Notes under the pieces: model-generated
Seen by the model: the letters and a program-made list of their open reading frames with translations, nothing else
Database searches by the model: none
Told to the model about the DNA's origin: nothing
Program-made: the position numbers and the translations under genes
Part shown: piece by piece, positions 2,927-61,634 of the stretch
Position numbering within the stretch: position 1 is the stretch's first letter
Layout of the letters: the number at the start of each line of letters is the position of its first letter
NCBI GenBank assembly: GCA_017621415.1
Contig: JAGATD010000045.1
Span: 9,270-73,269, forward strand
Direction of reading: 5' to 3'
Origin: Clostridia bacterium
GTDB taxonomy: Bacteria; Bacillota; Clostridia; Oscillospirales; CAG-272
DNA length: 64,000 nt

Positions 2927-3122
2927 AGTGAAGTTTTCACTAACGTGAAAGTGAAGTTGCAACGCAGTGAAGTTTGTGCTTCGCACAAGTGAAGTTAAGT
3001 TTGCCCACTTTGCCGAAGGCAAAACTTCACTATCCGCAGGATAACTTCACTTACACAGTAAACTTCACTTGCCCGTATGGGCAAACTTAGTTGGGCGACC
3101 TACTTTATCGCGAGTCGCCCAA
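2927..3122. repeat. array of AGTGAAGTT (x4) then inverted AACTTCACT (x3) with interleaved mini-hairpins, closed by a 9-bp hairpin
   Basis: AGTGAAGTT at 2927, 2950, 2966 and 2988; AACTTCACT at 3023, 3043 and 3061. Mini-hairpins are TGTGCttcGCACA, ATCCgcaGGAT and TGCCCgtatGGGCA. TTGGGCGAC(3091)/GTCGCCCAA(3114) is followed by a T-rich run. Confidence 0.8.
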
Positions 3123-14053: not shown

Positions 14054-17000
14054 TTATTTTGCTCCGCTCACAAATGCTTCCGGGCTATAGCCAATGTAAA
14101 CATTGTCTATACACATATAATAGTCTACGTCGCCCTGAAGGTAGAACAGAACACGCTCATTACCTACTGTTCCGCAGATGAATTGCATATCACATTGCCA
14201 TACATTGTCAACATACAGCTTAACATCTACAAGAGTTGATGTGTCAGTATCCAGGGAATACTCAAGTCTGTAATTGTGCCACTCGCCTTGTGAAATTGAA
14301 ATATTCTCTCCGCTGACTATAGCATCGCTTCCGATAGTTATAAGCCCATTTGCATCGGTTTTTAAATACAAATCCGCACGGCAAGCTCCGCTTTGCATCA
14401 AAATTCGCATAAATGTTTTGCTATTTGCGATATTTCCAAACGCAGCGTCAAATTCGATAATATTTACAACCCGATCGCTAGGAACACTATCAAAGGTATA
14501 TGTTATGCTCTTTGTCGACGTACCGCCCTTATGGAACCAAACATATTTGCCTTCGGTTACCTCGCATACATCAGGAAGAGAGGTGCTTGGAGCTTGCGCT
14601 CCCAATGCGTTATAGTCAATTTTTTTACCGACCGTTGTTTCATCGTTAAAGTATTTTCCGTTATCCTTTGTTCCCTTTAACTCAGGACCTTTTATTCCCG
14701 GAAGCTCCTCGTAAACGGCATCGATATATCCAAGATAAAGATTATCATATGCAATCCAGGAATCTTCATCGGTATACTGAAGCTGTATTTCAACCCTGCT
14801 GTTATCGTTTTGTGATACATCAAGTCCATCAACCTCAGCAACAAATTTTCCATTGATATAAATCTTAAATCTCACAACCGAATTGTCAAAATTATAGACT
14901 TCTATACGGAGATTATACCAAGTATTAGGCTGAAGAATTGCGTCTTCTGTTGAGTAAACGGTATTACGAAACTCTATCTTGCTTCCGTCAGCCGATGCAT
15001 TCAAATAAAGACCCGCGCGCATACCCAACGAGTAAAACTTAAATAACAGGAAGTTGTTTGCATTGGCGTTTCCAAATGCAACATCCGCCTCAAAAACGGC
15101 ATGTGGGTAAGATAATCCCTCTGAAGCCACATTGTAAGAATATGTTATGTACTCATGCTTTCCGCTCGTATTTCCAAGTCGGTAATAATGAACGTAATTC
15201 TCCGATGTAATGAATGTCTTTGCATCCTTTTTAGCTGAGGTGCTCGGAGCCTTTTCGCCCTGATCGTAATTATATCTCTTTCCTATGGCTTCGCTATTTT
15301 TGTAATAATCACCGCCAATATGAGTTCCCTCTATTGTCGGCAAGCTCTGCGGAATATCCTCAGGCTTAACAGGGAACAACGGAGATTCCGCAACATAAGC
15401 ATCGTTTGTGCGCTCGGCTTTGACATTATCAATATATAATTCGTTATTGCTCTTTCTTGAGTGAGCAATAGCAATCGCTCCTACGGCAAAGTCCACAACA
15501 GAGCCGTCTTCAACCCTTGAGGATGAGCTGATGCCCACATATTCTCCGTTTATGAAAATCTTACCTAAAATATTTAGCTTGCGACTACCGCTAGCATCCT
15601 CCTCGTATATTTTGTAGACCTCAACCGCAACATTAAACCATGTATTAAGCGATATTCCGTCAGCGAGGTTATTATCTCTATCTCCGTCAGGCCCAGCCTT
15701 GTAGTCAGCTATTCTTACATATTTCTCACCGTTTTCTTCGTACATCTGAAAATCAAGCCCGAAACAATCGTATGCCGCTCCCACTGTCCTGCTAAACAGA
15801 AGCTGAACAAATGAGCCGCTGCCACTCTTAACCATAAAATCACCGCTGAATTTATAACAATTTCCGGTGAGAAATGAGTTTGATACGCTTATGAATGTAT
15901 AAAGGGGATTTGCCGCAAAATCGTTATCAGTCGCATAAGTTTTTACGAGCAATGCCTTATCATTATTATCGCTTGGCACAGGATCGGCTACCACGTCGCT
16001 TTGATAGTATTTGTACTTTCCGTCACTTTGGGTTATATCCGTTAATTGGTTTTCAACTGTGTCGGCAGGATATTTAACGACACCGTACTCCTCTTCTCCA
16101 AAACCGTCTTCATAGTTGTCAAACTTTTCGGCATAAACAGGCTGAGGCTCGTTCTTTATTATTGTTCCCATATCCTCAAGTGTTCTTAAGAAATAATAGT
16201 AATCCGCGCTTGTGAACATAGGTACTCTGGTAACACCGAAGGTATCTAACATACTGATTGCTATTCCCGTGGATGAAATGCATGTTGCGTTTACATCACT
16301 CTCAGGGGAGGTCGCGCAAGCCACGAGGGCCTTTTGGGAGGTTAACTGAACCGTATCTCCTCTATATGAGAAAGCACCGTCCTCCTCTTTGTAATCGATT
16401 ATTTTTTCATAAGTGGCAGTCACAAGAGCTTCACCGTTCTCGATAAGCATCGCCCTTACTTCATCGGCTCTTTTACTGCCTTCGGTTTCCTCAATGCAGT
16501 CAAGCAAAAGCTCAAATGTTATCCAGGGATTATATACCGAGCAGACGTGTGTGTCTCCGGAATCCTGAAGAACCACGTCGATAACGCTCTGAATGGCAGC
16601 TTCCGCATTGGGCACCGGAATACCCATATAGTAATAAAAATGAGTGATTTTAAAGAGACCGTTTATCGCATTGTAGGAATTAATGATTTCACCCTGATGT
16701 TCGGTCATATTTGGCTCCCAGAGACCTGTTTCGGGATTTTGATGCTCGTTAAGATAATTTATAACATAGTCAATATATTCTTGACCTGCCATAGTTATCT
16801 GTGTGTGCATTGCCGCAATATCGTTGCCGGCGGTGTAAGAGTCTTTATCAAATCCAAGTTCATCTATATATTTTTCCCAAGCTTCTATACTTTGCAAGAA
16901 ATAAGGAAGATTAGATTTTGAAGCAGCGATCACATATGCAGCTGCAACCACAGCAGAGTTTGACCTGAGATTTCCGGTAATTAAAGAAGCAGGTGACACA

Positions 17001-18010
17001 CCCGGAGCGCCAAGCAAGCCTTTTATTCCATCAGGTGTATTGTAAAGAGGCATCTCACCGAATTTCTCTAGCATCTGTGTTGCCCAACCGAGGTCACGGC
17101 TGCGGCGCGCGTTAATGATATTATCGCCCCACTGAGGATGATAAAAATAACCGTCCTCCGAGCTTTGAAGCCCTATGGCAAAGTTAACCAGCTGCTCTCT
17201 TACAGTAGCAGGAATGCCAATGCCATAACTGCCTCCATACGACGAAAGCATTCCGGACTCGCTAAGGAAATTCAACACCTGCACAGTAGACTCGATGTCA
17301 GGTAAAAAGCCTACATTGTTTCTGCCGGAATTGGAAAAATAGAAGCCTCCTATATCAGGGTCATAAAGATTTGCCATCCATATGTATATTTCTTCGGTAT
17401 AAAGGGAGTACAGCTTCTTGATTGCCTCTATCGTTCCGTCATCAAGAGTTGCCTCTAGTTTTTCAAAGGCCTTATCTCTGCTTTCTTCTCTTATGGCTCT
17501 GATATGCTCAGAAAGATCAAACTGATTTGATGCTATCACACCGTCGCCAAATATCCTACTGCTTTTGTTACAGTAATTAGCAACAAAATAATCTATTGCC
17601 TCATCTGCTGCCATCGGGCTGTCGTATGCTATAGCTATCGAACCGCCTTCGCCAGCAATGCACCAGCCGCTGATGTCTTCTTTACCTTCAAGCATACTTT
17701 CAAGTTTTTGGTATGCCTTCTGCGACATTTCGCGCTCAGACCTTCCGATAACAATCTCGTGCTCATGGGAAACAGATGCATCGTAAAACACCGACACCTG
17801 TCTTCCCGTAAGGGTACTTATAGAAGAAATCAGTTCGGACGCATCTATGTCATCCTCTTCAGCAAAGACCACGGTGGTATTCGAGTCAGGAGACCACAGA
17901 GCATTTTCCACCTTCGGTGTAGTATCATTCTTGTCGATATCTTTTACTCTGCACGAGGCAAACAAAGAGAGTGCCGTAAAAAGCAAAATTGCGACTAATA
18001 TTTTCTTCAT
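14054..18010 (-). CDS. giant lipoprotein A: N-terminal alpha/beta domain + alpha/alpha-toroid-like domain + 3 LamG/ConA-like modules
   Basis: Lipobox LSLFAS-C. The toroid motif set spans roughly aa 170-640. Three modules end in the KIFINGEYV...LYIDNVKAE, KIYINGKFV...AYDNLYLGY and KLYVDNVWQ...CIDNVYIGY signatures. Confidence 0.85.
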   Translation of the reverse strand: MKKILVAILLFTALSLFASCRVKDIDKNDTTPKVENALWSPDSNTTVVFAEEDDIDASELISSISTLTGRQVSVFYDASVSHEHEIVIGRSEREMSQKAYQKLESMLEGKEDISGWCIAGEGGSIAIAYDSPMAADEAIDYFVANYCNKSSRIFGDGVIASNQFDLSEHIRAIREESRDKAFEKLEATLDDGTIEAIKKLYSLYTEEIYIWMANLYDPDIGGFYFSNSGRNNVGFLPDIESTVQVLNFLSESGMLSSYGGSYGIGIPATVREQLVNFAIGLQSSEDGYFYHPQWGDNIINARRSRDLGWATQMLEKFGEMPLYNTPDGIKGLLGAPGVSPASLITGNLRSNSAVVAAAYVIAASKSNLPYFLQSIEAWEKYIDELGFDKDSYTAGNDIAAMHTQITMAGQEYIDYVINYLNEHQNPETGLWEPNMTEHQGEIINSYNAINGLFKITHFYYYMGIPVPNAEAAIQSVIDVVLQDSGDTHVCSVYNPWITFELLLDCIEETEGSKRADEVRAMLIENGEALVTATYEKIIDYKEEDGAFSYRGDTVQLTSQKALVACATSPESDVNATCISSTGIAISMLDTFGVTRVPMFTSADYYYFLRTLEDMGTIIKNEPQPVYAEKFDNYEDGFGEEEYGVVKYPADTVENQLTDITQSDGKYKYYQSDVVADPVPSDNNDKALLVKTYATDNDFAANPLYTFISVSNSFLTGNCYKFSGDFMVKSGSGSFVQLLFSRTVGAAYDCFGLDFQMYEENGEKYVRIADYKAGPDGDRDNNLADGISLNTWFNVAVEVYKIYEEDASGSRKLNILGKIFINGEYVGISSSSRVEDGSVVDFAVGAIAIAHSRKSNNELYIDNVKAERTNDAYVAESPLFPVKPEDIPQSLPTIEGTHIGGDYYKNSEAIGKRYNYDQGEKAPSTSAKKDAKTFITSENYVHYYRLGNTSGKHEYITYSYNVASEGLSYPHAVFEADVAFGNANANNFLLFKFYSLGMRAGLYLNASADGSKIEFRNTVYSTEDAILQPNTWYNLRIEVYNFDNSVVRFKIYINGKFVAEVDGLDVSQNDNSRVEIQLQYTDEDSWIAYDNLYLGYIDAVYEELPGIKGPELKGTKDNGKYFNDETTVGKKIDYNALGAQAPSTSLPDVCEVTEGKYVWFHKGGTSTKSITYTFDSVPSDRVVNIIEFDAAFGNIANSKTFMRILMQSGACRADLYLKTDANGLITIGSDAIVSGENISISQGEWHNYRLEYSLDTDTSTLVDVKLYVDNVWQCDMQFICGTVGNERVLFYLQGDVDYYMCIDNVYIGYSPEAFVSGAK

Positions 18011-18011
18011 A

Positions 18012-19430
18012 TTACTGCATCTCCCTTATTTTATTCGGATTTATTGCATCATCAAACCAATCGGGCTTTACGTATATCTTTTGTGTTTGTATCGCATTAT
18101 CGATAATATCAAAAAATATTTTGGCATCCTTATCACAGAAAATGGGAATTCTGCGAATACCGAGAACCTTACATAAATTAGAAGTGACACCCGTGGAACA
18201 AATAGCGGAGGCATTCACATCTCCCTCATCAAGTCCAAGCCCCACCGGCGCCTTTTGCGATAAGCGAGAACGAGGCTCAGGATTATATGAAAACGATCCG
18301 TCTGCACGCTTGCAAGTCAAAACCTTTTCGCGTGTTACCCGTATCAGGTCCGCAGCGCGCTCTAAGATTATTTTCTGCAGCTTATGCGCCTCGAACTCAT
18401 CTCCGTGCAATCTCATATTTTCAAGCACGTTACTCATAGTTGCAAAGGGGTTGTAGAACTGACAGCAAAAGACTATTGGTTCATTGGAAAGCGCCACCGT
18501 TATAGCGCTCTTGATAGCCTTGTCAGCATTTGGCATACATACACCGAGATTGCTGTAAAGAAGACTAAGCTTCATAAGACCGTTTACCGAAGCGTAATTA
18601 ACCTGTGGCTCCCAAAGACCGTTGTCACTGCGCTGACAGTCTGCCAGCCACTGGAAAAGCGTGTTAATAAATTCAGGTCCTGCAGCTCCTATCTGTATTG
18701 CCTGCGATGAAATCATGTTGGCCGACCAGTAGGATTTGGTCTTCATATCAAATGATGCCAAATAATTTTTCCACTCGTTTATATCCTGAAGATATTTGGG
18801 AAGCAACGCGGAGCTTGAACCGTCATCGTTTTTGTCAATGGGAGTCGGATAATAGGGCTTATCCCCAAACCGTGAAATCATATCTGTTGCCCATCTGAGA
18901 TCTCTTGAACGCCTTGGAGTAATTATATTTTTACCCCATTGAGGATGATAAAAGAATCCGTCCTCGGGATCCTGAAGCCCCTTAGCGAATTTTAGTAAGG
19001 ATTCTCGCATACTGCCAGGAACGGCCTGAGCATAGGTCTTTCCCATTCCTGATATAAGACCTGAGCTTTCGGTGAAGCGTAGTATCTGTACCGTTGACTC
19101 TATGTCAGGCAAAAAGGCATCGCAATCCCTACCTGATGAGGAGAAATAAAAACCTCCTATTTTCGGATCCCAGAGAGTTGCCATCCATACATATAAACGC
19201 TCGTCATAAATATCGTAGAGCCTCTCAAGCTCCACTGCCGCATCCTTGCCGATAATCGGAACAATCTCTTTGTAGTACCTGCTTCGCATATCTTCTCGTG
19301 AAATGATTGCTTCCACAATACGTTCCTTGGTTACTTCGTTTCTACCACTCATATTTATAAAATCCATCCTTTCACGACTTAAATGTACTTTCTTTGAAAT
19401 GCAATCGTTACAATTAATAATATTATCCAT
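18012..19430 (-). CDS. signal-less alpha/alpha-toroid-like protein A (paralog of the giant lipoprotein toroid domain)
   Basis: Motifs LWDPKIGGFYFS, LPDIESTVQ, DGFFYHPQWG, RRSRDLRWA, NGLWEP, DGSFSY and EGDVNAS. No hydrophobic N-terminus. The stop lies 1 nt before the next ATG. The exact start is uncertain. Confidence 0.8.
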   Translation of the reverse strand: MDNIINCNDCISKKVHLSRERMDFINMSGRNEVTKERIVEAIISREDMRSRYYKEIVPIIGKDAAVELERLYDIYDERLYVWMATLWDPKIGGFYFSSSGRDCDAFLPDIESTVQILRFTESSGLISGMGKTYAQAVPGSMRESLLKFAKGLQDPEDGFFYHPQWGKNIITPRRSRDLRWATDMISRFGDKPYYPTPIDKNDDGSSSALLPKYLQDINEWKNYLASFDMKTKSYWSANMISSQAIQIGAAGPEFINTLFQWLADCQRSDNGLWEPQVNYASVNGLMKLSLLYSNLGVCMPNADKAIKSAITVALSNEPIVFCCQFYNPFATMSNVLENMRLHGDEFEAHKLQKIILERAADLIRVTREKVLTCKRADGSFSYNPEPRSRLSQKAPVGLGLDEGDVNASAICSTGVTSNLCKVLGIRRIPIFCDKDAKIFFDIIDNAIQTQKIYVKPDWFDDAINPNKIREMQ

Positions 19431-19501: not shown

Positions 19502-20992
19502 TTACTGTGCGTTAGTTGCTACAGCCTCAGTACTGTAGCCAAGATAAATGTTGTCAAGCGAAAGCTTGGAGCTCAAGCCCTTGTTAGCGTAAATAAGCGC
19601 TCTGTAGCTACTGTTTGTTTCGGTAGATGTTCCGTTGGTGTAGAAGTCGCACTGCCACTCGTTATCTATATAAAGCTTAACGAGTATCAGCTTTGCATCT
19701 GCGATGTAATTATACTCAAAGCGGAAGTTATGCCACTCGCCCTGCTTAACCGAAATGTTTTCACCTGCCAGAATGGTATGGTTTGAGCTGTGAATAGAGA
19801 TTTTCCCATCAGAGCCCGAAAGATATACCGAGCTTCTCGCACCCTGGACATCACCGCCGTTTATCTTATCGGCAAGCATAATGTAACCGAAGGTTCCGTC
19901 AACGCCCTCAAACATAGCATCAAACTCCATAATAAAGGATTTATCTGTGGCTGATGGAGTATTAAACGTAAGTGTTGTGTTTAGGTTAGAGGTTATACTC
20001 GAAAAATCAGCATAAGAGTATTTGTCATCAGCGCCTACTATTTCACCTACCGGAGCAAGGCTGCCTGTTTTAAACTGGATAGCACTTTCACCGTTATCAA
20101 AGCTTATTTCCTTACCTGTATAATTACCTGAGTAATACTTACCCGAGCCCTTTGTGTAGGTGGTAGGAACAAATACGCTTGCAGAGCAAACCATATTTCC
20201 GGTAACGGGAATCTCAACTCCGTTCTCCGCCTCGGTAACCATGCCGTTGCCGTTCTCATCATAGGTGGTGATGCTCCATGTGCAGGTCGCACCTGCGGCA
20301 AGCTCACCTGAATATTTAAGGGTCACGGTATCTTGAGTGCTTATAACACTTTCAAGTCCGGTATCGTCTATAGTGCCGCCATCAACGACTATCATGTGAT
20401 AATCGGTGATAAGAGTCTCATTTTTGCCGCCGTCAAAGTTATCAATGGCTATCTGCGCCTTTTCGGCATAATCTATGAGTGAAAGATAAAGCTCTTTATA
20501 AACGTATCCTCTCTGTGTAGGATTCGTATTTCTGATGTAGTTATCCTTAAAGAGCTTGGTATAAAGGAACTGCATTACACTGTATGTTTCTACATCCACA
20601 GGACGGGTATCTCCTGTGTAAGCAACCGCATATACGGTCTCGGTGAAATCCTGAGCGGGCATTCCCTCGGTTGCGTAAATAGGATATTCCGCAGATGTAT
20701 CGTCTTCATTTTCTACGGTTAAGGTTTCTGCACGCTTTAACGCATTTTTCCATTCACCGCTCTCACCGATCTTATACTCAACCTTGAGGTCGGATATAGC
20801 GGCTTCTCCTGATGATATATCGATTTTAGGGGCATATGCTATTGCTATTCTGTCATTGTGTATTATGGTTTGCGCATAAAAATCAACCTTACTGTCGTTC
20901 TCTGCCGATGCGGTAATGCCTATCACCGCTCCAACAAGAAGAGCAAACGAAAGCACTGCCAAAAAAATTTTTTTGAGATTGTTTGTTTTCAT
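19502..20992 (-). CDS. Sec-secreted beta-sandwich protein A with C-terminal LamG-like module
   Basis: Signal peptide ...GITASA/END. Shares the YSV.(Q/E)(F/Y)...(K/R)L(F/Y) region with 28059-29567 and 61635-63050. The C-terminus (QGEWHNFRFEY...KLYIDNEWQCD...LDNIYLGYS) resembles the last module of giant A. Confidence 0.8.
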   Translation of the reverse strand: MKTNNLKKIFLAVLSFALLVGAVIGITASAENDSKVDFYAQTIIHNDRIAIAYAPKIDISSGEAAISDLKVEYKIGESGEWKNALKRAETLTVENEDDTSAEYPIYATEGMPAQDFTETVYAVAYTGDTRPVDVETYSVMQFLYTKLFKDNYIRNTNPTQRGYVYKELYLSLIDYAEKAQIAIDNFDGGKNETLITDYHMIVVDGGTIDDTGLESVISTQDTVTLKYSGELAAGATCTWSITTYDENGNGMVTEAENGVEIPVTGNMVCSASVFVPTTYTKGSGKYYSGNYTGKEISFDNGESAIQFKTGSLAPVGEIVGADDKYSYADFSSITSNLNTTLTFNTPSATDKSFIMEFDAMFEGVDGTFGYIMLADKINGGDVQGARSSVYLSGSDGKISIHSSNHTILAGENISVKQGEWHNFRFEYNYIADAKLILVKLYIDNEWQCDFYTNGTSTETNSSYRALIYANKGLSSKLSLDNIYLGYSTEAVATNAQ

Positions 20993-21027: not shown

Positions 21028-21165
21028 TCAGTCGTTTACATCCCAGTTGTCATCAATAATGCCATTTCCTTCGCCTGACGTTTCTCCGCCGGAGGACGTA
21101 ACAATGTCTGAAAATTCTAGCAGAATAATTTGAATGTCTGCGTTTTCATATGTTTTTTGTTTCAC
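21028..21165 (-). CDS. conserved micro-ORF A (45 aa, GTG start), below the ORF-track cutoff
   Basis: Hand translation gives (M)KQKTYENADIQIILLEFSDIVTSSGGETSGEGNGIIDDNWDVND*. It is homologous in sequence and position to 29599-29727 and lies 35 nt upstream of the secreted-protein gene. Confidence 0.55.
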   Translation of the reverse strand: MKQKTYENADIQIILLEFSDIVTSSGGETSGEGNGIIDDNWDVND

Positions 21166-21457
21166 TTTTCAAGTTTTTCCTTTCTTCGCCAAAACTGAAA
21201 TATTCTCTGCGGCATGACGATTTTATTTGGGTTAGCACAGATAAATCTTACGGCTACGTACTAAGAATATCACAATTTTTATACCATTTCAATGAGTAAA
21301 ATCAATATTTGTTAACCTCGACGAAAAAATTTGTAGACTTATACAAAACAGCTTTTATACTCTCAAAAATCTCTTTAAAATCATATAAAATTCCGGCTAA
21401 TTTTCCCTGCGAAAAATTGAAAAAGTGACTTTTCAAAGGCATTAAAATAACAAAAAA

Positions 21458-24877: not shown

Positions 24878-25000
24878 TTTACTGTCTCCTTCAATATGCC
24901 GGCTAATGGAACCCGCATAGTATTTCATTCTATTATTTTAACACAGTTTTATAGAAAATACAATAGCAAATTTAAAATTCGAAATTCGGAATTCTAAATC

Positions 25001-25030
25001 CGAGAAAAAAGGCTTCCCCTTGGGGAAGTC
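25001..25030 (-). terminator. rho-independent terminator after the MFS gene
   Basis: Minus strand reads GGACTTCCCCAAGGGGAAGCC followed by TTTTTTCTC. Confidence 0.7.
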
Positions 25031-25120
25031 CTTTCATGTTACGGTGGCTTTCCCACAAAAATCTCGTCAAAAACTTTACAGAGGGGAAATGTTAAAGTAT
25101 ATTCACAGAATATTAATGAG

Positions 25121-26419: not shown

Positions 26420-26562
26420 TTGAAAGCTCCGTTATTTCTCTTTAGCTTACTAAAAAAAGCAGGCTGAAAGCTGTAAGACATATATGTACCCCAAAAGCCT
26501 TTGGCTTTTGGGGTTTAGGGCAAAGCGGACTCTGCCCTGAAATTTCTATCATTTTTTGTTTT

Positions 26563-27960: not shown

Positions 27961-28006
27961 GGCACGTCTCCTTTGAATTTTAGAAAGAAATTTTGCTTTT
28001 TTTATC

Positions 28007-28033
28007 GGGTTACCGCATAAGGCGCGGTAACCC
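28007..28033 (-). other. 10-bp GC-rich intergenic stem-loop
   Basis: GGGTTACCGC-ataaggc-GCGGTAACCC lies between the secreted-protein gene and the hydrolase gene. On the mRNA strand it is followed by an A-run, so it is not a canonical terminator. Confidence 0.6.
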
Positions 28034-28058
28034 TGTTTTAGTTTTTACTTATTTTGAA

Positions 28059-28751
28059 TTACTCTGCAGGCTCTGCAACGTAAGTCTTGTTTATTGCCTT
28101 GAAAACGGTGTTGTCGAAATAAATGGAAACCGAGTAAACATCCCATTTTGTAATAAAAGCACCGAAATAATTCATCTCACTTGTAGGAGCAAAATTGCTG
28201 ATAGTGGCAAAGCAAGCACCGCCAATATAATATTTTACAACATTCGCATCGGTGTAATACTCCATAGTTAGGGTGTACCATTTGTTTGCATCGATACGAG
28301 TACCGTCGGCAAGAGAATAGTGAGAAAATGCCCCGTCAACAGCTTTTGCCGTAATAGCTATTTCCGCATTTCTTATGGGATTTTGGTTTTGGTTGTTATA
28401 GTTACTAGACAAGAATAAATAAATACCCGTTTTATCTGCCGTAACACTCGTAGAACTAAGCATTATGTCCGTTTCAAATACAATACAATTTCCTGTAGCA
28501 TCAGTCTGCTTTTTGAAGTACATATCGGTAGAATTGACATTTTGGTGCTTATACATAAGAAGATATTTATCATCACCGTCGGTAATCACCTGAGTACGGC
28601 TACCGGTAGCAGTGGCTGCTGTACTTCCTTTAGAAGCATTATAATATACAAAATCATCCATACTATAGAGACTCGACACTCCGCTTACTGCGCTATATCC
28701 GATTGATGATTGGAAATTGTTTCCGCCGAGAAGCTCGTAGTAATTGCCTGC
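28059..28751 (-). repeat. coding module copy 1 of 3 (others at 31154-31850 and 31893-32530)
   Basis: Shared runs include LLMYKHQNV, DMYFKKQ.D..GNCIVFETDI.LSSTSVTADKTGIYLFL and WYTLTMEYYTD. Long near-identical nucleotide stretches occur, e.g. around 28440-28500 against 31545-31620. Confidence 0.85.
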
Positions 28752-29567
28752 TTCTGCCTTTGCGGGAGTGATTATAGTTGTGCCGGCTAAGTTAAAGCTT
28801 TCACCGTTGTTTACTGTTCTGGAGGCTGTTCCCTCCGCTGTAGTTTCTTCAACATTCCACATTGCTACGCTCTCGTCTGTCGAGTTAGGAGTAATGGTTG
28901 ATTCGAGAGCATACATACCCGAGGAGTACTTGCCGTCGATGGTTGCGTTACCGTCAATGTAAACATAAGCTGTTTCGCTGAGGGTATTTTCAACATTATT
29001 ATTTTCGTTTGTATCTGTGTTAAGTATTGTCTGAAGATAACCCGCTGACTCAAGAAGAGATGCGTAGAAGTTATCCTGAAGCTCGGTTGCATCATCAACG
29101 TAGAGGCGCTTGTTGAGATACTCTGCAACACTGTATCTAACAACAGGGCTGTAAATCTCGGTGTCTACAATATGAGCCTTTGCGTACACTGTTTCGCCGA
29201 TTCTGGCAAGGGGGAAGCCTGCGGTAAAGAAAGCGGGATATGTAACATCATCTGATGTATCTTCTGTGCCCTTGTTATCGGTGTAGCCCTTTTCATAGGT
29301 TGCGCCCTTGTATGCGGTTGCTTCGGGGTTAACGGAGGGGTCCTCAAGGTAGTAGAGGAGCTCAATTACGGCGCCCTCGCCTGCCTTTGTGTGGTCAACC
29401 GCAAACATAACCTTTATAACATCGTTATAGGCTACGTTCTTTAAGGTAATTTCTACCGAGGGAGTCTCGGAGGTTTCGGCGCTAGCGGAAATTCCTACCG
29501 CTGCGGCTATTATAACAACCAGCGCTAAAGAGAGAGTTATGAGCTTTAAGACTTTTTTGTTTTTCAT
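28059..29567 (-). CDS. Sec-secreted beta-sandwich protein B with C-terminal LamG-like module
   Basis: Signal peptide ...GISASA/ETS and the shared YSVAEYLNKRLY region. The C-terminal ~230 aa closely match modules 5 and 6 of giant B. Confidence 0.8.
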   Translation of the reverse strand: MKNKKVLKLITLSLALVVIIAAAVGISASAETSETPSVEITLKNVAYNDVIKVMFAVDHTKAGEGAVIELLYYLEDPSVNPEATAYKGATYEKGYTDNKGTEDTSDDVTYPAFFTAGFPLARIGETVYAKAHIVDTEIYSPVVRYSVAEYLNKRLYVDDATELQDNFYASLLESAGYLQTILNTDTNENNNVENTLSETAYVYIDGNATIDGKYSSGMYALESTITPNSTDESVAMWNVEETTAEGTASRTVNNGESFNLAGTTIITPAKAEAGNYYELLGGNNFQSSIGYSAVSGVSSLYSMDDFVYYNASKGSTAATATGSRTQVITDGDDKYLLMYKHQNVNSTDMYFKKQTDATGNCIVFETDIMLSSTSVTADKTGIYLFLSSNYNNQNQNPIRNAEIAITAKAVDGAFSHYSLADGTRIDANKWYTLTMEYYTDANVVKYYIGGACFATISNFAPTSEMNYFGAFITKWDVYSVSIYFDNTVFKAINKTYVAEPAE

Positions 29568-29598
29568 TTTTATTTTTTCCTTTCAGTTAAATAATAAT

Positions 29599-29727
29599 TT
29601 AAGTGGTCCACGAATCGTCAACAACACCGCCATCTTCCTCAAAAGGCGTTGACGTTTGGATAACATCCTTGTTATCCATAAAGATAAGTTGAAGCTCTGC
29701 TTTTTTGTAGATTAACTTATTATCCAT
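29599..29727 (-). CDS. conserved micro-ORF B (42 aa), below the ORF-track cutoff
   Basis: Hand translation gives MDNKLIYKKAELQLIFMDNKDVIQTSTPFEEDGGVVDDSWTT*. AAAGGAAAG sits 2 nt before the ATG. It lies 31 nt upstream of the secreted-protein gene. Confidence 0.6.
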   Translation of the reverse strand: MDNKLIYKKAELQLIFMDNKDVIQTSTPFEEDGGVVDDSWTT

Positions 29728-29773
29728 AGCTTTCCTTTCTGCGGAATTTTTCCGCGTTATTTTATTTTTGCTT

Positions 29774-31063
29774 TTATTTTGTGGGTCTTTTTAAGGCTGC
29801 GAGAAATTTGTCATATGCATTCGGAGAGAAGAGAGGAATTTTGTAATCCTCAAGCTCAAGGGCGCGGAACATAAACGCAACAGTTCCCGTAGAGCAAATG
29901 CCGTTTGCGTTTATATCACCCTCGTTTGTTCCGAAGATTGCCACAGGCATTCCCTGGCTTGTACCTGAGGTGTTATTTTCGCAATAGGAGAAGCAGCCCT
30001 CCTTTTTCTTAAAGATTTTCACCTTTCTCGCGGTTGACCTTATTGCCTCGGGAGCTGCAAGAAGAAGCTCCTTCGAAATCTCGTCTGCCTTAGCTTTTCC
30101 CTCATCTCCGCCAAAATTGCGCAAATCGAGGAGTATGTTATGTATAGAGAACCAGTTGTTGTAGGTGGTACAGACGTGTATGGGGTGGTCGGTGCTGTTT
30201 ATGCACTCAAGGCAGGTTCTTACCGCCTTTTCAACATGGGGTACGGAATGACCCACTGACCTATAGAAGCAGGAAATTTTAAGAAATGCGTTTATTGAAT
30301 CATATCCGCCTGTTTTTCCCCAAAGTCCTGTCTCGGGGTCCTGGATGCTGTTAAGGAATTTTACCGCAACGTCGCCAAGGCCTGCCGCTTTTACCTGGGT
30401 TGCCTGAGCCGCCATACGGTTACCCGACCAGTACTCTCTGTGGTCCCAGTCATAGGATTTAAGATGCTCCATAAAGGCTTCCTCAGAGAGGAGATAATCG
30501 GGGAGAACATTTTCCGCTGTATCGTTACCGACCTTTTCCTCTTTGGTTTTTCTCAGCCTCTCGTTTGCTGTCGGGTACGGGAGCTTGAAGTTAAACTTAT
30601 CTGCCATATCCTCAGCCCACATAAGGTCTCTGCCCCGTCTTGCAAGCTTGGTATCGGTGTATTCCTTGCCCCACTGGGGGTGATAGAAATATCCTGTCTC
30701 GGGGTCCTCGCAGGAGCAGATAAACTCTGCCATTTTGTCTCTCATCCATGAGGGGACTTCATCAAAGGAGCTTATCATTTTTGAGCTTTGTAAAAAGTTT
30801 GTTGCCTGCTCGGTGCTCTCGATATCGGGGAGGAGCTTACTTACCCTTCCATCGTACTCTATCTCTTCGTTATCTCTTGCCGATTCGGAAAAATAGAAGC
30901 CGCCTATGTCGGGGTCATAAAGGCTCGCCAGCCACTCAACGGCACCGTCATCAAAGTTTGAATAAAGCTCCTTGATAGCTGCGACAACCTCTCTGCCGTC
31001 TCCGCCGCGTCTGTTTACTTCGGCTTCAAGGGCTTGCCATTTTTCCTCATAAAAATTGTTCAT
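29774..31063 (-). CDS. signal-less alpha/alpha-toroid-like protein B
   Basis: Same motif set (LYDPDIGGFYFS, LPDIESTEQ, GYFYHPQWG, RRGRDLMWA, GLWGK, EGCFSY, EGDINAN). The start was set to the ATG at 31063 (MNNFYEEKWQAL, GAAGGAAAT upstream) by analogy with the 416-aa paralog. Confidence 0.8.
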   Translation of the reverse strand: MNNFYEEKWQALEAEVNRRGGDGREVVAAIKELYSNFDDGAVEWLASLYDPDIGGFYFSESARDNEEIEYDGRVSKLLPDIESTEQATNFLQSSKMISSFDEVPSWMRDKMAEFICSCEDPETGYFYHPQWGKEYTDTKLARRGRDLMWAEDMADKFNFKLPYPTANERLRKTKEEKVGNDTAENVLPDYLLSEEAFMEHLKSYDWDHREYWSGNRMAAQATQVKAAGLGDVAVKFLNSIQDPETGLWGKTGGYDSINAFLKISCFYRSVGHSVPHVEKAVRTCLECINSTDHPIHVCTTYNNWFSIHNILLDLRNFGGDEGKAKADEISKELLLAAPEAIRSTARKVKIFKKKEGCFSYCENNTSGTSQGMPVAIFGTNEGDINANGICSTGTVAFMFRALELEDYKIPLFSPNAYDKFLAALKRPTK

Positions 31064-31116
31064 TGGTATTTCCTTCTTTCTTTTTGCGATCATTTTCGCA
31101 CTTGACCGCGGTGGTG

Positions 31117-31142
31117 CCTGCCGTGCCGTATGACACGGCAGG
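31117..31142 (-). other. 9-bp GC-rich intergenic stem-loop
   Basis: CCTGCCGTG/CACGGCAGG in the gap after the giant B stop codon. Confidence 0.5.
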
Positions 31143-31153
31143 CTTAAATTTAA

Positions 31154-34100
31154 TTATTCTGCGGGGGGTGTTTCAGACTCTGAGGTGTAGGTTTTGTCTA
31201 TTGCCTTGTAAACTACGTTGTCGAAATGAATAGAAACCGAATAAAACTCCCATTTTGATACATAAGCTCCAAAATAATCCATCTCACTTGCCGGTTCAAA
31301 ATCGTTGATAGTGGCAAAGCAAGTGCCGTTAAGATAATATTTTACAATATTCGAGTCGGTATAATATTCCATCGTCAGAGTGTACCATGTGTCTGCATCG
31401 AGACGGGTACCGTCGCTAAGCTCGTAATGAGAGAAGACTCCGTCAACAGCTTTTGCCGTAATAGCCATTTCTGCATTTCTCGTAGGAGCAGTTCCCGTAT
31501 TGTTATAGCTGCTTGCCAAGAAAAGATAAATACCCGTTTTATCTGCCGTAACACTCGTAGAACTGAGCTTTATATCCGTCTCAAATACAATACAGTTGCC
31601 TACGGTATCTGACTGCTTCTTGAAATACATATCTGACCAAGCGACATTTTGATGCTTATACATAAGGAGATGTTTATTACCGGCATCAGTATCGAGAATA
31701 GTGTAATTTGAACCATCCTTTTTATATGTGTTGCCCTTGTTTGTATTGTAATATACAAGTCCGTCAAGTGTCTGATATCCGCTGCCGCCGGTTACGTATC
31801 CTGAGGAATTTGTGAAATTAAGTCCGCCGAGAGCCTCATAATAATTTTCGGGCTCCTCGGGCACAGGCTCCTTTTCCTCTTCTGAAATCTCCTCTGACAC
31901 ATAAACAACATTATCAAGGCTTACCGTGGGAGCTACCGCATTATTATCCATAAAGATTCCGAAATAGGGCATTTCTGTTTCGGTATCGAGAGTATCGGTG
32001 TCGTAGCACACACCGTTAATATAATACTTAACGGTATTTGTATCGGTATAATACTCAACGGTTACGGTATACCACTTCTCAGCCTCTACCTTTTGGCCGA
32101 GGAACTCATAATGGGTGAACGCGCCGTCGGTTGCCTTAGCAACAAAGATTCTCGCCGCGTTTCTTGTGGGAGCGGTGGTTGACGCATTGTAATTGCTTGC
32201 AAAGAACAGAGCAGGACCGTTAGCATCCTTAGAGCAAATCACCGCGCTAAGCTTAATATCGGCTTCGAATACGTAACAGTTACCTGTCTTGTCATTTTGC
32301 AGCTTGAAGTACATATCCGACCAGCTGGTGTTTCTTGTCATTGTAAGAATTTTGTTTGTGCCGTCGGTTCCAAGAATAACGTAATTCTTTCCTGCGTTGC
32401 TAAATGTATAACCCTTTGATGCATTGTAATATACAAGTCCGTCGAGTGTCTGACATCCGCTGCCGCCCGACACAAAGCCTGTTGAGCCTGTGAAGCCAAG
32501 ACCGCCAAATCCTTCGTAGTACTTTCCTGGAGCTGCCAACGAGGAATCAATGCTGGGCTTATCCAAAGGAGTAGCGGGAGTCTCGGGAGTGGTGGGAGTA
32601 GAGGTTGTCAGCTCATCATCCTTAAGTGTGAGGGTAGACTTGTAGAGAGATACGTTGTCAAGCATCACAATACCGTCGGTTGAGGTATAAGAGCTGACGC
32701 GCGCCTGTGTGATGTCGGTTTTCGGAACAGCCACATTATCGGGCGCTGTCTTGCCGTAGAAGTTGTCACTTACCAGGATAAGCTCGTTATTAACATAGGT
32801 CTTTGCTCTTACGGTTTCCGCATCGCCGAAGTAATATTCAATCTTGATATTAAACCAAGTGGCTTCCGCAACACCCGTATTAACTCCAATACCCCAAATT
32901 CTGCCGGGAACCGCCTGGCTTGATGCGCCTGAAATATCGCCAAGCCACAGTGTTCCGTCTTTAAAGGTCACTGTCAGAAGATACACGAAATTATTATTAT
33001 CGCCTGTGAGATAAATCTCATAAAATGTATCCTTGTAGGTGTTGTAATCGATGTACAGGTCAGCTTCAAATACAACAGCGTTACCCTTGGCTGCCTTGTT
33101 CGCCATATCAAAGTAGATAGCATCCTGCGCGCCTGTAAGGGTTGTGAAGGCTAGGGCCTTTGAATACACCTCGTTAAATATTTCAACTATCTTGAGATTT
33201 GCTCCTGTGCTCTTTAGGCTTGTTGTAATTCCCGAGGGGATATTTCCTGTAGACGAATGCTCAAAGGTGAGCTTTTCCGCTCCGTCCTCTTTGTTTTGTC
33301 CGTCGGTCTTTTCTTCCTCGTAGAACTTGTTGTAGCTTTCTATTATTATGTTGTCAAACAAGGTATCAGCGCTTCCCTCTACTGAGGAAATCAGAAGCTC
33401 TTTTATGCCGTTTTTCGCATTTTTCTCACTGTACTGAAGGCTGCTTATTGCTACGCACTCGCCGTCTAGATAAATGTTAGCAGTATCCTTTTCTGCAAAG
33501 TATTCAATGCCAAGCTTCACAGCGCTTCCCTTGCCGAATGAAGCAAGAGGAGTTTCATATGCTTTGCCTTCGGTCACCTCGTGAATACCGACGCTGTCGC
33601 CTGAGGTAATAAGGTCATAGCAAAGAACGGTATTGCCGTTTGCATCCTTAAAGGCTATTCTGTATTTAACACCGTCAGAGGCATTCTTAGGTACTGTTAT
33701 TTCAGCCTCGAACAAGAATGCTGAAAGAATTACACTTCTTTCATTAACGGGAATAGATATAGCCGAGCCGGTATCTGCAAGCTCCAGCTTTCCGTCCTTT
33801 ATTTCCGCGCCGCCGCTTAACACAACACCCTCAGAGAGTGAAGAGTCAAAGCCGTGAACTGTTTGACCAACCTGGGGCTGAACAGCAGCATTAAAGGAAT
33901 CTATGTTACGTTCTACCTTAAGATTATCTATGTAAATAAGCGATGAAACAGAGGCGGAATTTACTATTTCCACTTCTCCTACGTTCCAAAGGTTTGAAAC
34001 ACTCGAGCAAAGCGATGTGTTTGTTGCAAGCAGGATATCATCAACATAGATAAGAGCTGCCAAAACATCTCTGTAATACTTAATCATAAGCTTTTTCTCT

Positions 34101-37100
34101 TCGCCGAGAGGAATCTTTATACCGTCAACTATATCAAGCGCAACTCCGTTTGGAGCTTCGATAAGAGTGAGATATTTGTTTCCGGACTCCTCGACCACCT
34201 TAAACTGCATACGCATAATCGAGGGGGCTGCAGTTATATCTCTTCTCAGTATAATTTCGGCTACTGTACCTACCTCGGTGGACTTATCCACTAGGATGTC
34301 AGCGCTTATGATGGCGCAGTTTGCGCCCTTTGTACGAAGATTTACGGGAATGTCCAGAGTGTACCCGCTGCCTTTTGCACCGCTAAGCTTAAGCGCCTTG
34401 TCAACCGCGCCGTTAGTACCTGTAATCTCGGCTATATCAACCGAGCCGCCGCTTTCGGTAACTGTTATTCCCTCGGGGTAATTCTTTCCTGTCTCTTGCT
34501 TTTCAAAGTCGAAGATAAGCTCATCTTTGTCGGGGGGATCAACATTAAAGGCAGGCTGATTATTTATATCAAGAGCCGGAGTATACTGAAGGTTTGATTT
34601 ATACGAAACCACATTGTCCATCAGCACCTTGGCATTATAATCACTCATAACAAGGAACTGAGAATATGTAAAGTAGGAAGACGGAACACCTGCTCCGGTA
34701 AGCTTTTTACCCGTAGAATCGTAGTAGTTATCGCTGACAGCCATAAGCTTATTGTCAACATAAATCTTTATACGAACTGTCTCATGGTCGCCGGGGTAAT
34801 ACTCTATCTTAAGGTTGAACCACTCACCAAGGGGCGCCGAGAAGCGAAGATCCTGGTCCTTTGAGGTTTTCCAGCTCTGAGAAGAGGAATCTCCAAACCA
34901 GACCTTGTCACCGGAAACCGTTACCGTCAGCATATAGGCTCTGTCAAGCAGAATCTGCGCGAAATACGCCTTATCTGTTGAAGAATCTATAAGTATATCC
35001 GCCTGGAAGGTATAGCAGTTTGCCGAAAGATTCAGGCTCTTGCAATTAACATTTACCTGGTCTCCGCCGCCCTTGTATGAGGTGAGCTCAATAACATTGT
35101 TGCCCGCTTTTTTCGGGTCTTCAACTACCTCTACCTTTCCGCTTGAGCGCACAACATAGGGAACGTCGGGGTTGCCAAGAGGCTGCCAGAGAGCCTCGTC
35201 CTCAAAGTCTATAATCTCAGGCGCCGGCTCCTCGTCTTTAATAATAGGACCGAGCTCCTCTATAACCGAAAGGAATGTAAACAGCTCTGCCTTACCGAAA
35301 AGCGGAGGTCTCTCAAGTCCCAAAACCGAGAACATATGGTTTGCGACACCATTTACGCAAATAACCGTTGAGTTTACGTCACCCTCGTTTGTGTTGGGGA
35401 GAGCAACCTGCATTCCCTGGCTTGTTTGGCAGGATGCATGCTCTGTATACGAGAATGAGCCGTCATCCTTTTTAAATATAGATACCTGCTCCATTGTTCT
35501 CTTTATTGAAACGGGAGCATTCTGAATAAGCCTTGCTCTGATATCGCTTATGGTTTTTGCCGTTTGGGAAGAATCTTTACTGTTGTATGTAAGGTTATCA
35601 AAGAGAAGATCCACTGCGTACCACGCGTTGTAAGGGTAGCATACGTGTACCGCCCTTTCGTCACAGGTTATGGACTCTATTGCGGATTCGCAGGCGGCAA
35701 GAGCATTGGGGAACTCAAGACCGCATCTGTTATAGAGGTCAACGATTTTAAGAAGACCGTTTACTCCGTCAAAGAGGTGATAGCCGTACTCCCCTTTTTC
35801 AACCCAATACCACATTCCGTTCTTGGGGTTCTGGTTTTCGAGAAGCCACTCCTCAAGTATTGCGACAAGAGAATAGCCCTTGCCCTGCTCCTTAAGCTGC
35901 TTATCACGGTAAACAAACTGCTCTGACTGAGCGGTAAGTGTGTTTCCTACAGCGTAAGAATTGCCACGTATGTCAAGAGTAGCAAGATATTCTTTAAAGG
36001 TTATGTCGCTCACAAGATGAGGAGCAACATAATCGCTGTCGGCAACCGAAACAACCTTTGATACGGCAGCCGCCTTTGATGAGCCGAGCCTTGATGTCAG
36101 CTTTGATGCCTCGGAGACACCGCCGTCAACTCTTGAGCCGTCTGCCTTAATGCCGTCGCCCTCTACTCCTGTAGGGGTATCATATGTAGGAGCTGAGCCG
36201 CAAACTCTGAGAATTGACAGAGCATGGCCCATATCTCTTCCTCGGCGGCTGAGCTTTGTATCTGTCAGGTCCTTAGGCCACTGGGGGTGATAAAAATATC
36301 CGTTAGGGTCCTGGAGCGACTTTGCGAAATATACAAGCTTTGCTTTCATTTCGTCAGGAATAACACTTCCCCAAGAGCTGCCCTCTATCATTCCGGAGGT
36401 TTCAAGGAAGCCTAAAGCCTGACCAGTTGTTTCAAGGTCTGCGCCGTAGCCGTGGGTATTACGTCCCGAGTTTGAATAATAGAAGCCTCCGCTTACAGGG
36501 TCATAGAGGTTGGCAAGCCAGGTAACAACGTCGGATGAATACATTGAATAGTATTCTCTTATCGCCGCAACAACCTCTTTGCCAAGCTCGCCGCCAATCT
36601 GCGCTTCAATACGGGCATAGGCTTCCTCGCGTTTTTGGTCATCCAATGCCTTCTGAGTTACCAGGGGGTCTACCGCATTGCTTGCTACAACTCCGTCTTT
36701 CAGAATAAGCGTTGATGCGGGAGCTATATACTCATCCGAAAGAAGTGTAACAGCTACCTGCAGCGCTGAATTTATGCCGAATTTATCAGCATCATAGGCA
36801 ATGGCTACCGAGCCGCCCGAGGCATAAATAACATATCCTACATCGGTCTCGTTTTCTTTATCCAATCTGCTAAGCTTCTTGTAAGCTTCCTCGGAAATCG
36901 GTCTGTTTGTTTTTCCCACAACTATTTCGTGCGCCTTTTTCTCAGAGCTGTCACTTACTATTGTGGGAAGAGTTTTTTCAAGATGAAGCGACAACGCATA
37001 GTGAATATCATTAAGTTTATTTATGCTTTCACTGTTAAACTCGCTGCCATACACTATCTGAACGGCGCTATTAGGGTCATATATAAGGCTTTCGCCTGCT

Positions 37101-37213: not shown

Positions 37214-37284
37214 TTTTTGTCTCCTTTGTCTGTCTCTTATGAGGTTGCCTTAATGCAACACGGCTATCTTTTACTCTTTCAGCT

Positions 37285-60022: not shown

Positions 60023-60046
60023 AACAATTTCCTTTCATATAATATT

Positions 60047-61610: not shown

Positions 61611-61634
61611 AAGCATAAAGCAAGGTTGTATTTA

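Follow-up and report, generated by a model that had tools for sequence, protein, structure and literature searches.

Two small open reading frames beside surface-protein genes of a Clostridia bacterium belong to a large peptide family with a putative leader/core architecture

In a 64,000-nucleotide stretch of a Clostridia bacterium genome (GCA_017621415.1, contig JAGATD010000045.1, positions 9,270 to 73,269; this entire stretch is the window, and coordinates are counted from its first base unless a locus is named), two micro-ORFs (small open reading frames, ORFs) directly precede genes for secreted proteins. Both are almost certainly real genes and members of a very large peptide family of gut and rumen Clostridia. 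The two loci show the following features:

21028..21165, minus strand: micro-ORF 1, 45 aa, GTG start, MKQKTYENADIQIILLEFSDIVTSSGGETSGEGNGIIDDNWDVND
21091..21165, minus strand: leader-like part of ORF 1, residues 1-25, K-x-x-Y-E-N-A-D-I-Q-I-I-L-L-E-F-S-D-I-V-T-S-S, matching the family profile
21031..21090, minus strand: core/tail of ORF 1, GGETSGEGNGIIDDNWDVND
21264..21292, minus strand: sigma-70-like promoter TTGAAA-17-TATTCT, with TG, about 100 nt upstream of ORF 1 (consensus match only)
29599..29727, minus strand: micro-ORF 2, 42 aa, ATG start, MDNKLIYKKAELQLIFMDNKDVIQTSTPFEEDGGVVDDSWTT
29650..29727, minus strand: leader-like part of ORF 2, residues 1-26, ending D-V-I-Q-T-S
29602..29649, minus strand: core/tail of ORF 2, TPFEEDGGVVDDSWTT
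29733..29738, minus strand: Shine-Dalgarno-like AAAGGA, 5 nt before the ATG of ORF 2 (read from the sequence)

The initial annotation had placed both frames 31-35 nt upstream of paralogous secreted-protein genes. The ORF list bears out their coordinates as well as their translations, and the next start codon follows ORF 1 after 35 nt (start 20992) and ORF 2 after 31 nt (start 29567). Likewise, the three sequence blocks that the pair was said to share are present in its alignment, and BLASTP gives 35% identity over 37 residues (E=2e-7, single comparison). The epithet 'unannotated' is apt for the ORF track with its 60-aa cut-off, but not for public records of metagenome-assembled genomes (MAGs), where both peptides are called 'hypothetical protein'. 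One protein (P0001, NCBI GCA_017624615.1) is 98% identical to ORF 1, and another (P0002), read on 13 contigs, is identical to ORF 2; P and L numbers denote proteins and loci. A third peptide copy was not found with a hidden Markov model (HMM) of the pair in the six-frame translation of the window. The ribosome-binding site of ORF 2 is good; the AGGA of ORF 1 lies 12 nt from the GTG, so that the start codon of this ORF is less certain. No terminator-like site was found between ORF 1 and the downstream gene for a 496-aa protein, and Rfam has no family that overlaps either peptide or lies between micro-ORF and downstream gene. A 7-bp GC-rich hairpin (GCGGAA-AAA-TTCCGC, 29740-29756) is located between the stop codon of the gene upstream of ORF 2, which encodes a 439-aa toroid protein, and the ribosome-binding site of ORF 2; by score, it is terminator-like on the plus strand only. 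Pfam and NCBIfam scans of both peptides and of relatives of the RiPP type (peptides made on ribosomes and modified after translation) returned no family, and neither window peptide has a hydrophobic export signal of the Sec or SHP (short hydrophobic peptide) type.

A two-sequence profile run with HMMER against 1.84e9 representative proteins (E<1e-3) recovered 62 hits (clusters), nearly all of 38-61 aa, with best non-self E values of 5e-13 and 4e-11. A word-indexed search with the 62-sequence alignment added 119 further proteins, which carry no Pfam domain and no informative name; with the two-peptide profile, such a search returned the two peptides alone. We also scanned DNA with a hand-made degenerate pattern (Y-E-x-[AP]-x-h-x-h-h-x-h-x3-D-[IV]-[IV]-[TA]-x-S; h, hydrophobic; x, any residue), for which about four chance matches are expected in 596 Gb. 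The pattern matches ORF 1 and is found in at least 119 Clostridia genome tiles. Counts of tiles and loci given here and below are among the matches listed (119 tiles, 124 peptides), the true number being at least 119 tiles. All 124 matches lie inside ORFs of 33-63 aa with an intact frame, whose start codon precedes the match by a few codons. Lachnospiraceae, Oscillospiraceae, Ruminococcus, Christensenellales and other Clostridia of gut and rumen serve as hosts. Several loci encode two or three members of the family, as tandem copies or in alternation with surface-protein genes (L023:2481-2891(+), L038:266-810(+), L136:544-3858(-), L020:35-1001(-)), and in several MAGs family peptides occur at two or three separate loci. 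The profile search in other genomes that the initial annotation had called for has thus yielded a large homologous family of same-sized ORFs. A literature search (motif strings, module gene combinations, small ORFs in Lachnospiraceae) turned up no description of it, and neither the family nor the neighbouring domain X (see below) has a Pfam or NCBIfam model. This family of 33-60-residue peptides is so far undescribed.

The family has a leader/core architecture. Its conservation profile comprises 167 proteins from the profile search and is anchored on an invariant Asp (position 0, 100%). On the amino-terminal side of the Asp, position -17 is Lys in 75% of the proteins, -14 is Tyr in 93%, -11 is Ala/Pro in 87% and -4 is Phe/Leu in 84%, and both -7 and -6 are aliphatic in >90%; on the carboxy-terminal side, +1 and +2 are Val/Ile (98%), +3 and +4 are Thr (85-89%), +5 is Ser (100%) and +6 is Gly (65%). 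The N-terminus of about 25 residues reads K-x-x-Y-E-x-[A/P]-E-h-E-h-h-x-F-x3-D-V-I-T-T-S/G, where the slash marks the presumed cleavage site, and the form that includes the window peptides is K-x-x-Y-x-x-[A/P]-x-h-x-h-h-x-h-x3-D-[IV]-[IV]-x-[TSA]-S in an ORF of approximately 33-60 aa. Both window ORFs align across the entire motif, the profile hits are reciprocal, and ORF 1 carries the Y (93%), A/P (87%), D (100%) and S (100%) of the profile. The tails are variable and acidic, 8-40 residues long and rich in Gly, Asp, Asn, Ser and Glu (G 20%, D 12%, K+R 2.8%). Those of the window peptides comprise 20 (ORF 1) and 16 residues (ORF 2) and contain no Lys, Arg or Cys. The C-terminal motif [LI]-D-x-N-W-D-V-N of ORF 1 is also present in other species (P0005, P0006, P0036, P0037, P0044, P0140, L052, L145), its NWDVN ending being conserved in several of them, and the nearest relatives of ORF 2 (P0003, P0004) have the endings MDDAWTS and MDDSWT. 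A Trp near the C-terminus is aligned in each of the 15 cassette-type peptides, i.e. those encoded in cassettes like the ones of the window. The conserved blocks of the initial annotation, which had missed this, are a leader-like part of the lasso or RRE type (RRE, RiPP recognition element) that ends D-[IV]-[IV]-x-[TS]-S, and a Trp-containing C-terminal motif.

For the same 15 peptides, the median proportion of synonymous differences (pS) is 0.78 (saturated), and pN, the proportion of non-synonymous differences, is 0.44; the dN/dS-type check between the two window copies, also suggested at the outset, gives pS 0.89 and pN 0.46. Since pN is below the saturated pS, the micro-ORFs can be regarded as selected coding genes. 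Across its 13 contigs ORF 2 has no substitution, which is uninformative for dN/dS; in the neighbouring toroid gene, up to 3.9% of bases differ. The original argument was that frame, length and motifs had been retained while the flanking genes diverged; the peptides are about as diverged as their neighbours and not better conserved: the 496-aa and 502-aa proteins are paralogous in their N-terminal ~160 residues only (29% identity), and the neighbouring 472-aa and 439-aa proteins are 35% identical. The conclusion of a selected coding product rather than chance is well supported by the large family of same-size ORFs, pN < pS and the recurring layout.

In the window, the two micro-ORFs belong to cassettes of surface-protein and toroid genes; a third cassette with giant, toroid and X-domain genes spans 54791-64000 (minus strand).

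14054..18010, minus strand: giant surface protein of 1318 aa, lipoprotein-type, containing a toroid domain; cassette 1
18012..19430, minus strand: 472-aa (alpha/alpha)6-toroid protein without signal peptide, cassette 1
19502..20992, minus strand: 496-aa secreted protein downstream of ORF 1, with signal peptide, domain X (~20360-20902) and jelly-roll-like C-terminal part
28059..29567, minus strand: 502-aa secreted protein downstream of ORF 2, with signal peptide, domain X (~28920-29477) and a C-terminal module also found in the 2019-aa protein
29774..31093, minus strand: toroid paralog of 439 aa, with its end 46 nt upstream of ORF 2; AlphaFold2 (AF2) model with a predicted local distance difference test (pLDDT) score of 84.5
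31154..37213, minus strand: giant surface protein of 2019 aa, lipoprotein-type, containing a toroid domain; cassette 2
37285-38112: PocR/AraC regulator, heading cassette 2
54791-60022, minus strand: 1743-aa giant lipoprotein with embedded toroid, third cassette
60047-61297, minus strand: 416-aa toroid protein, third cassette
61635-63050, minus strand: 471-aa signal-peptide/X-domain protein, third cassette
63200-64000, minus strand: further paralog, cut by the window end, third cassette

Six paralogous (alpha/alpha)6-toroid domains are encoded in the window, three in signal-peptide-less proteins and three inside giant lipoproteins. They have no sequence match in Pfam, NCBIfam or the PDB, and Foldseek gives the AF2 model (pLDDT 84.5) weak, generic neighbours, namely class II terpene cyclases, GH76 and GH105 (template modelling score ~0.37). 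We considered peptide modifiers of the LanC or prenyltransferase type, but the presence of the toroid inside extracellular giant lipoproteins favours a carbohydrate-active role. The 502-aa protein had no hits in a PDB sequence search, nor did the first 186 residues of the 496-aa protein in a word-indexed protein search. A 12.8-kb segment (24994-37819) comprising genes for an MFS transporter, a GH39 protein, the 502-aa protein, ORF 2, the 439-aa toroid and the 2019-aa giant, together with the greater part of the PocR/AraC gene, is missing from a 98.7%-identical MAG (GCA_017624615.1; L010) and therefore represents a strain-variable island. Upstream of ORF 1, at a distance of 350 nt, lies the gene for a 206-aa radical SAM (S-adenosylmethionine; rSAM) protein that matches TIGR04038 with 210 bits (cut-off 130) and has no counterpart in cassette 2 or in orthologous cassettes. 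It was rejected as a maturase, being the TatD-associated TIGR04038 of a metG-tatD-rSAM unit. A Gut-1 small RNA (3019-3093, minus strand; Rfam RF01706, 52.7 bits, above the gathering score) is unrelated to the micro-ORFs.

Family-wide, the peptide genes co-occur with genes for giant surface proteins, with domain X and with a set of putative maturation genes. Of 124 peptides, 83 follow an ORF on the same strand at a median distance of 24 nt. The ORF upstream is in many cases longer than 1000 aa and in many cases truncated at the tile edge. The C-terminal 450 residues of the upstream proteins contain Flg_new, BspA-type leucine-rich repeat, carbohydrate-binding module (CBM) and GDSL domains, and 40 of the 83 proteins end in an unannotated domain of ~170 residues, here called X, which has the motif ..Y-S-[AV]-x-x-Y....L..A-L-Y-x-Y..[SA]-A..Y and is often arranged in tandem. 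Domain X was seen in loci from L020 to L138, e.g. L044:3619-4968(-) and L105:978-2327(+). For nine peptides, X is found at the N-terminus of the next protein, as in the window, and X-coding DNA abuts the peptide gene in 49 of the 124 loci (40%). A comparison by hhalign showed that X is homologous to the domain at the N-terminus of the two window proteins (496 and 502 aa) and of their homologs (probability 95.5%, E=1.5e-8). The window-type order, i.e. toroid protein or toroid-containing giant lipoprotein, peptide, signal-peptide/X protein, recurs in L017-19, L024, L040, L051, L052, L066, L083, L113, L137, L139 and L141. When metagenomes were scanned with two aligned sequences from the 496-aa subfamily, a single locus emerged, L145; although found through the secreted protein and not the peptide, it encodes a family peptide (...HLDGNWDVN) ~40 nt upstream. 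Consequently, a conserved ORF exists at the equivalent site elsewhere, with the peptide-then-secreted-protein order in L017, L040, L051, L052, L083, L137, L139, L141 and L145. Both window ORFs share the family feature of a large secreted or surface neighbour, as they precede signal-peptide/X proteins in cassettes with giant lipoproteins. The proposed tie to a downstream secreted-protein gene, however, holds for the window and some relatives, whereas the usual place in the family is 3' of a giant surface-protein gene.

At the sequence level, the family leader resembles the leaders of Firmicute lasso peptides. The latter include MKAWNTPVIETLEINETAA/GG and MKKFVNADIQEVAIEETAF/GP (PMC7533575) and feature a YxxPxL motif and a Thr(-2) near the cleavage site; in the lasso system, the PqqD-like B1 protein is needed for the action of an HPr-kinase-like enzyme as well as for leader removal (PMC10368454). 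In the window peptides, Y-x-x-A-x-[IL] is present, and Thr would be at -3 (ORF 1) or -2 (ORF 2) if cleavage took place after Ser. The distance from Tyr to this presumed site is ~20 residues, versus 17 in lasso leaders. Of the putative cores, that of ORF 1 could give G1...E7 and that of ORF 2 would begin with Thr; with such acid-rich tails, the lasso ring pair is uninformative. Type I signal peptidases require small residues at -3 and -1, a rule that the T-x-S/G junction would fit.

In L011-L013, a family member with a Cys-containing tail, CLTWSNQNGSGCYYGLTES, is part of a textbook RiPP cluster. The cluster has genes for a ScmC/HprK-like P-loop protein, for PqqD and for an S26-like peptidase, along with the precursor, one rSAM/SPASM enzyme, another precursor that shares the N-terminus, and another rSAM/SPASM enzyme. 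This cluster (L011:5493-10507) is also seen in L012, L013, L111, L138 and L056. One of its precursors, P0099, is indexed in 234 assembly-collection blocks, of which 24 contigs were read, and looks like an abundant, uncharacterised gut RiPP. Family members without Cys are found in operons with the same accessory genes, albeit without rSAM. In L074 (cultured Anaerotaenia torta DSM 100431), the order is 929-aa beta-helix/CBM surface protein, peptide, P-loop, PqqD, S26, ABC (ATP-binding cassette) exporter, NTP_transf_5, and in L143 it is peptide, PqqD, S26, ABC, NTP_transf_5. We searched for the five module families (ScmC/HprK-like P-loop, PqqD, Sec11/SipW-like S26 peptidase, ABC exporter, NTP_transf_5) by HMM. 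At least one of them is present in 28 of the 119 tiles, and at least one module gene accompanies 15 of the 47 peptides with 4 kb or more of downstream sequence; rSAM enzymes occur in only ~4 of the 119 tiles. All seven P-loop proteins tested match ScmC (best E=4e-8) and four of them HPr(Ser) kinase, all under the curated cut-offs. The S26 peptidase profile retrieves SEC11A (E=4.5e-4) and also bacterial signal peptidase I from the PDB, with G-x-S-M-x-P and a His invariant as in Sec11/SipW-type enzymes. A lasso peptide was rejected: cyclase and B2 protease are absent from the window ORFs and from the complete operons L074 and L143. Therefore, the family would work like a lasso or RRE-dependent precursor, but is no lasso peptide. 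As for an rSAM/SPASM-modified RiPP, the window cores have no Cys and the window peptides no rSAM/SPASM neighbour.

In many other loci, the ends of the peptide tails copy the extreme C-terminus of the neighbouring secreted protein. When peptide tails were scored against the C-termini of same-strand neighbours, 14 loci reached a score of at least 20, compared with 3.6 +/- 1.7 (maximum 8) in 200 permutations across loci. Examples are:

L044: peptide GELPFVPAE, neighbour ...IELPFVPAF, a lipoprotein with a long Pro/Thr-rich stalk
L109: peptide LPDDLF, neighbour LPEDSFF
L069: peptide SFNGGALH, neighbour TFNGGAIH
L139: peptide GGDDWS, neighbour KDDWIQT, a giant toroid lipoprotein
L141: peptide SDWS, neighbour ESGWS, a giant toroid lipoprotein
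L017: peptide GGGWV, neighbour EDGWVEQ, a giant toroid lipoprotein

Stalk proteins (L044:2857-3360(-), L091:4872-5354(+), L036:2092-2775(-), L076:400-981(+), L109:2919-3626(-)) are small, lipoprotein-like or transmembrane-anchored, and consist nearly entirely of Pro/Thr/Glu-rich low-complexity sequence. They end in ELPFVPA[EFD] or LPEDSFF, the tail motif of the adjacent micro-peptide.

To explain these observations, we tentatively favour a scenario, to which as a whole we give slightly less than an even chance, in which the window peptides are orphan precursors of exported, Trp-tailed peptides that act together with X-domain surface proteins. PqqD would bind the leader as a beta-strand, the core would possibly be phosphorylated or otherwise decorated, the S26 peptidase would cut after the small residues T-x-S (T-S-S in ORF 1, Q-T-S in ORF 2), and the ABC transporter would export the core. 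For the window, the products would be acidic peptides of 16-20 residues with the Trp-motif ends ..IIDDNWDVND and ..VVDDSWTT. Such leader-dependent processing and export is about as probable as its opposite. The core would then most likely act extracellularly on co-encoded surface proteins, and since X abuts the peptide gene in 40% of the loci, this domain is the best candidate target, although we deem an action of the core on X rather unlikely. The core may represent a free copy of flexible C-terminal 'hook' tails on neighbouring surface proteins. If surface proteins docked non-covalently onto X via such hooks, the micro-peptide, matured by a lasso-like, cyclase-less PqqD/kinase/S26/ABC module, could serve as a competitor, placeholder or regulator of a cohesin-dockerin-like assembly. 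Conceivable docking pairs are giant enzymes or adhesins on membrane-anchored Pro/Thr-rich stalk proteins, or X-domain proteins on giant lipoproteins. This extension is speculative and, in our estimate, still somewhat less probable than the action on X.

Several results weigh against this scenario. Homologs of PqqD, ScmC-like proteins, S26, ABC and NTP_transf_5 were not found within the 64-kb window, nor are there module genes within 10 kb of the cassette-type relatives L139, L141, L017 and L010. With no module genes in the window, maturation would have to occur in trans, by genes elsewhere in the genome, hence 'orphan' peptides. Members with a Trp tail have module genes in only 3 of 28 tiles, so that for this subclass it is the leader homology that speaks for processing. 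ORF 2 deviates from the usual junction, with Q at -3 and T at +1 instead of T and G. The Trp tail occurs in none of the window's three giants or other neighbours, and there is no convincing tail-like motif in the window proteins. In the third cassette, neither intergenic region contains a family micro-ORF; the X-domain paralog encoded at 61635-63050 thus has no peptide gene, and the positional link between micro-ORF and secreted-protein gene noted initially does not extend to it. Finally, the AF2 model of X (three sequences), which suggests a seven-strand sandwich followed by two helices, is too poor for a fold search (pLDDT 55).

Alternatively, the peptide could remain unprocessed, as an acidic micro-protein that is kept in the cell or co-secreted and serves X-domain surface proteins as their dedicated chaperone or assembly partner. 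Two conserved beta-strands of the peptide, h-E-h-h-x-F and D-V-I-T-T-S, would complement or cap X. It is in line with this idea that the conserved peptide part and X are the tightest co-occurring elements (49 of 124 loci), that about two thirds of the tiles show no maturation module, and that co-translation in a fixed proportion is suggested by the narrow 24-nt gap behind giant genes. Yet the same N-terminus is used in PqqD and rSAM clusters without an X domain (L011, L111, L138, L056), X proteins, with their Sec signal peptides, fold extracellularly whereas the peptide has no such signal, and it is the tail, not the N-terminus, that co-varies with the neighbouring proteins. We thus consider a chaperone function improbable. 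The copying of C-termini of structural neighbours is also what a signalling role would leave without a reason. According to that model, the exported core would be a pheromone, like PapR, Phr, ComX or XIP, that reports on or autoinduces its own surface-protein or polysaccharide-utilisation operon, possibly via the adjacent PocR/AraC regulator (37285-38112). The small size and a conserved C-terminal aromatic motif (NWDVN or LPEDIF) would suit a pheromone; LPEDIF recalls the LPFEF of PapR, and Trp is part of the functional motifs of ComX and XIP. Moreover, there is one peptide gene per operon, the tails are operon-specific, and an AraC/PocR regulator heads cassette 2. Neighbour clustering, however, shows no regulator family that recurs and no recurrent receptor of the RRNPP type, Rgg or histidine kinase, and we regard a pheromone as less probable than a chaperone.

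The absence of maturation genes from the window, together with the location of cassette 2 on the 12.8-kb segment missing from a 98.7%-identical strain, could indicate that the ORFs are decaying orphan RiPP precursors that lost their biosynthetic cluster and have no current function. Such a relic is very improbable, because frame, start codon and length are intact in 124 of 124 genomic hits, ORF 2 is identical on 13 contigs while the adjacent toroid gene varies in as much as 3.9% of its bases, pN lies well below pS, and the NWDVN motif is conserved across species. Conservation at the amino-acid level, with synonymous sites saturated, likewise disfavours a cis-acting upstream ORF, in which the act of translation controls the downstream secreted-protein gene and the peptide itself is irrelevant. 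The 31-35 nt spacing in both window loci would be in line with such an element. But in most loci the peptide gene closes its transcription unit or is followed by a gene on the other strand, a paralogous window gene lacks the peptide, and no Rfam element or terminator-like structure lies between ORF and gene; this kind of control is extremely improbable. The same low probability is assigned to a classical lasso peptide or an rSAM cross-linked antimicrobial RiPP, with the rSAM protein encoded 350 nt upstream as the maturase in the case of ORF 1. The lasso-like leader, the G1 and E7 of the putative ORF 1 core and the family members that are clearly rSAM substrates would be compatible with it. On the other hand, lasso cyclase and B2 protease are lacking from the window, L074 and L143, the window cores contain no Cys and are strongly acidic, unlike most bacteriocins, and the 206-aa radical SAM protein is a housekeeping, TatD-associated TIGR04038 enzyme absent from cassette 2 and orthologous cassettes.

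Irrespective of the exact function, these easily missed micro-genes are present in hundreds of gut and rumen Clostridia at the least, frequently several to a genome, and stand beside the largest surface proteins of their hosts, including adhesin-like and polysaccharide-degrading ones. A Pfam/NCBIfam model would be merited for consistent annotation of the family. If the peptides were processed and exported, they would constitute a new and abundant gut-microbiome class of linear peptides that depend on a leader, with a maturation system akin to the lasso-peptide machinery minus the cyclase. Should the idea of tails and domain X hold true, it would reveal a novel way for Gram-positive gut bacteria to assemble or regulate surface enzyme complexes, and a hook assembly system would be widespread in gut Lachnospiraceae, Oscillospiraceae and Ruminococcus. 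Cultured carriers of the family are Anaerotaenia torta DSM 100431, Porcipelethomonas ammoniilytica and Clostridiales bacterium VE202-01.

Among known systems, the Firmicute lasso precursors of the paeninodin/pseudomycoidin type (A, B1 = PqqD, B2, C, D = ABC, K HPr-kinase-like, N nucleotidyltransferase) come closest in architecture. Common to both are the short leader (aromatic-x-x-P/A-x-h-E-x-h), a Thr near the cleavage site, usually Gly at +1, and, in the family operons, a co-encoded PqqD-family RRE, an HprK-superfamily P-loop protein, NTP_transf_5 and an ABC exporter. In contrast to lasso clusters, the family operons have neither the asparagine-synthetase-like cyclase nor the transglutaminase-like B2, but a Sec11/SipW-like S26 peptidase; the leader is 3-4 residues longer and ends with the invariant D-[IV]-[IV]-x-x-S, the cores have no consistent Gly1...Asp/Glu7-9 pair, and the genes stand beside those for giant surface proteins. 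Systems of the SynChlorMet (SCM) type and other PqqD-dependent rSAM/SPASM RiPPs share with the clusters in L011-13, L111, L138 and L056 the ScmC-like and ScmD/PqqD-like proteins as well as two rSAM/SPASM enzymes with Cys-rich family cores, whereas rSAM is confined to ~4 of 119 tiles and the window peptides have neither Cys nor an rSAM/SPASM neighbour. With the precursors of the pheromones PapR, Phr, ComX and ComS/XIP, the family has in common a length of 40-55 aa and a short C-terminal aromatic motif in which the functional information appears to reside, but not a Sec or SHP-type signal or an adjacent RRNPP/Rgg regulator or ComQ, and it has an RRE-type leader instead. Cohesin-dockerin and donor-strand assembly offer an analogy in that modular surface proteins bear the recurrent, often tandem terminal domain X, and partner proteins carry a short terminal motif on a flexible, membrane-anchored Pro/Thr-rich stalk; there is no sequence relationship, binding is hypothetical here, and the leader-bearing free copy of the motif has no counterpart in known systems. 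In summary, the peptides are of a known kind, the RRE-dependent leader peptide, while the family itself, the cyclase-less module with its Sec11/SipW-like peptidase, the placement beside giant surface-protein genes and the tail mimicry appear to be new.

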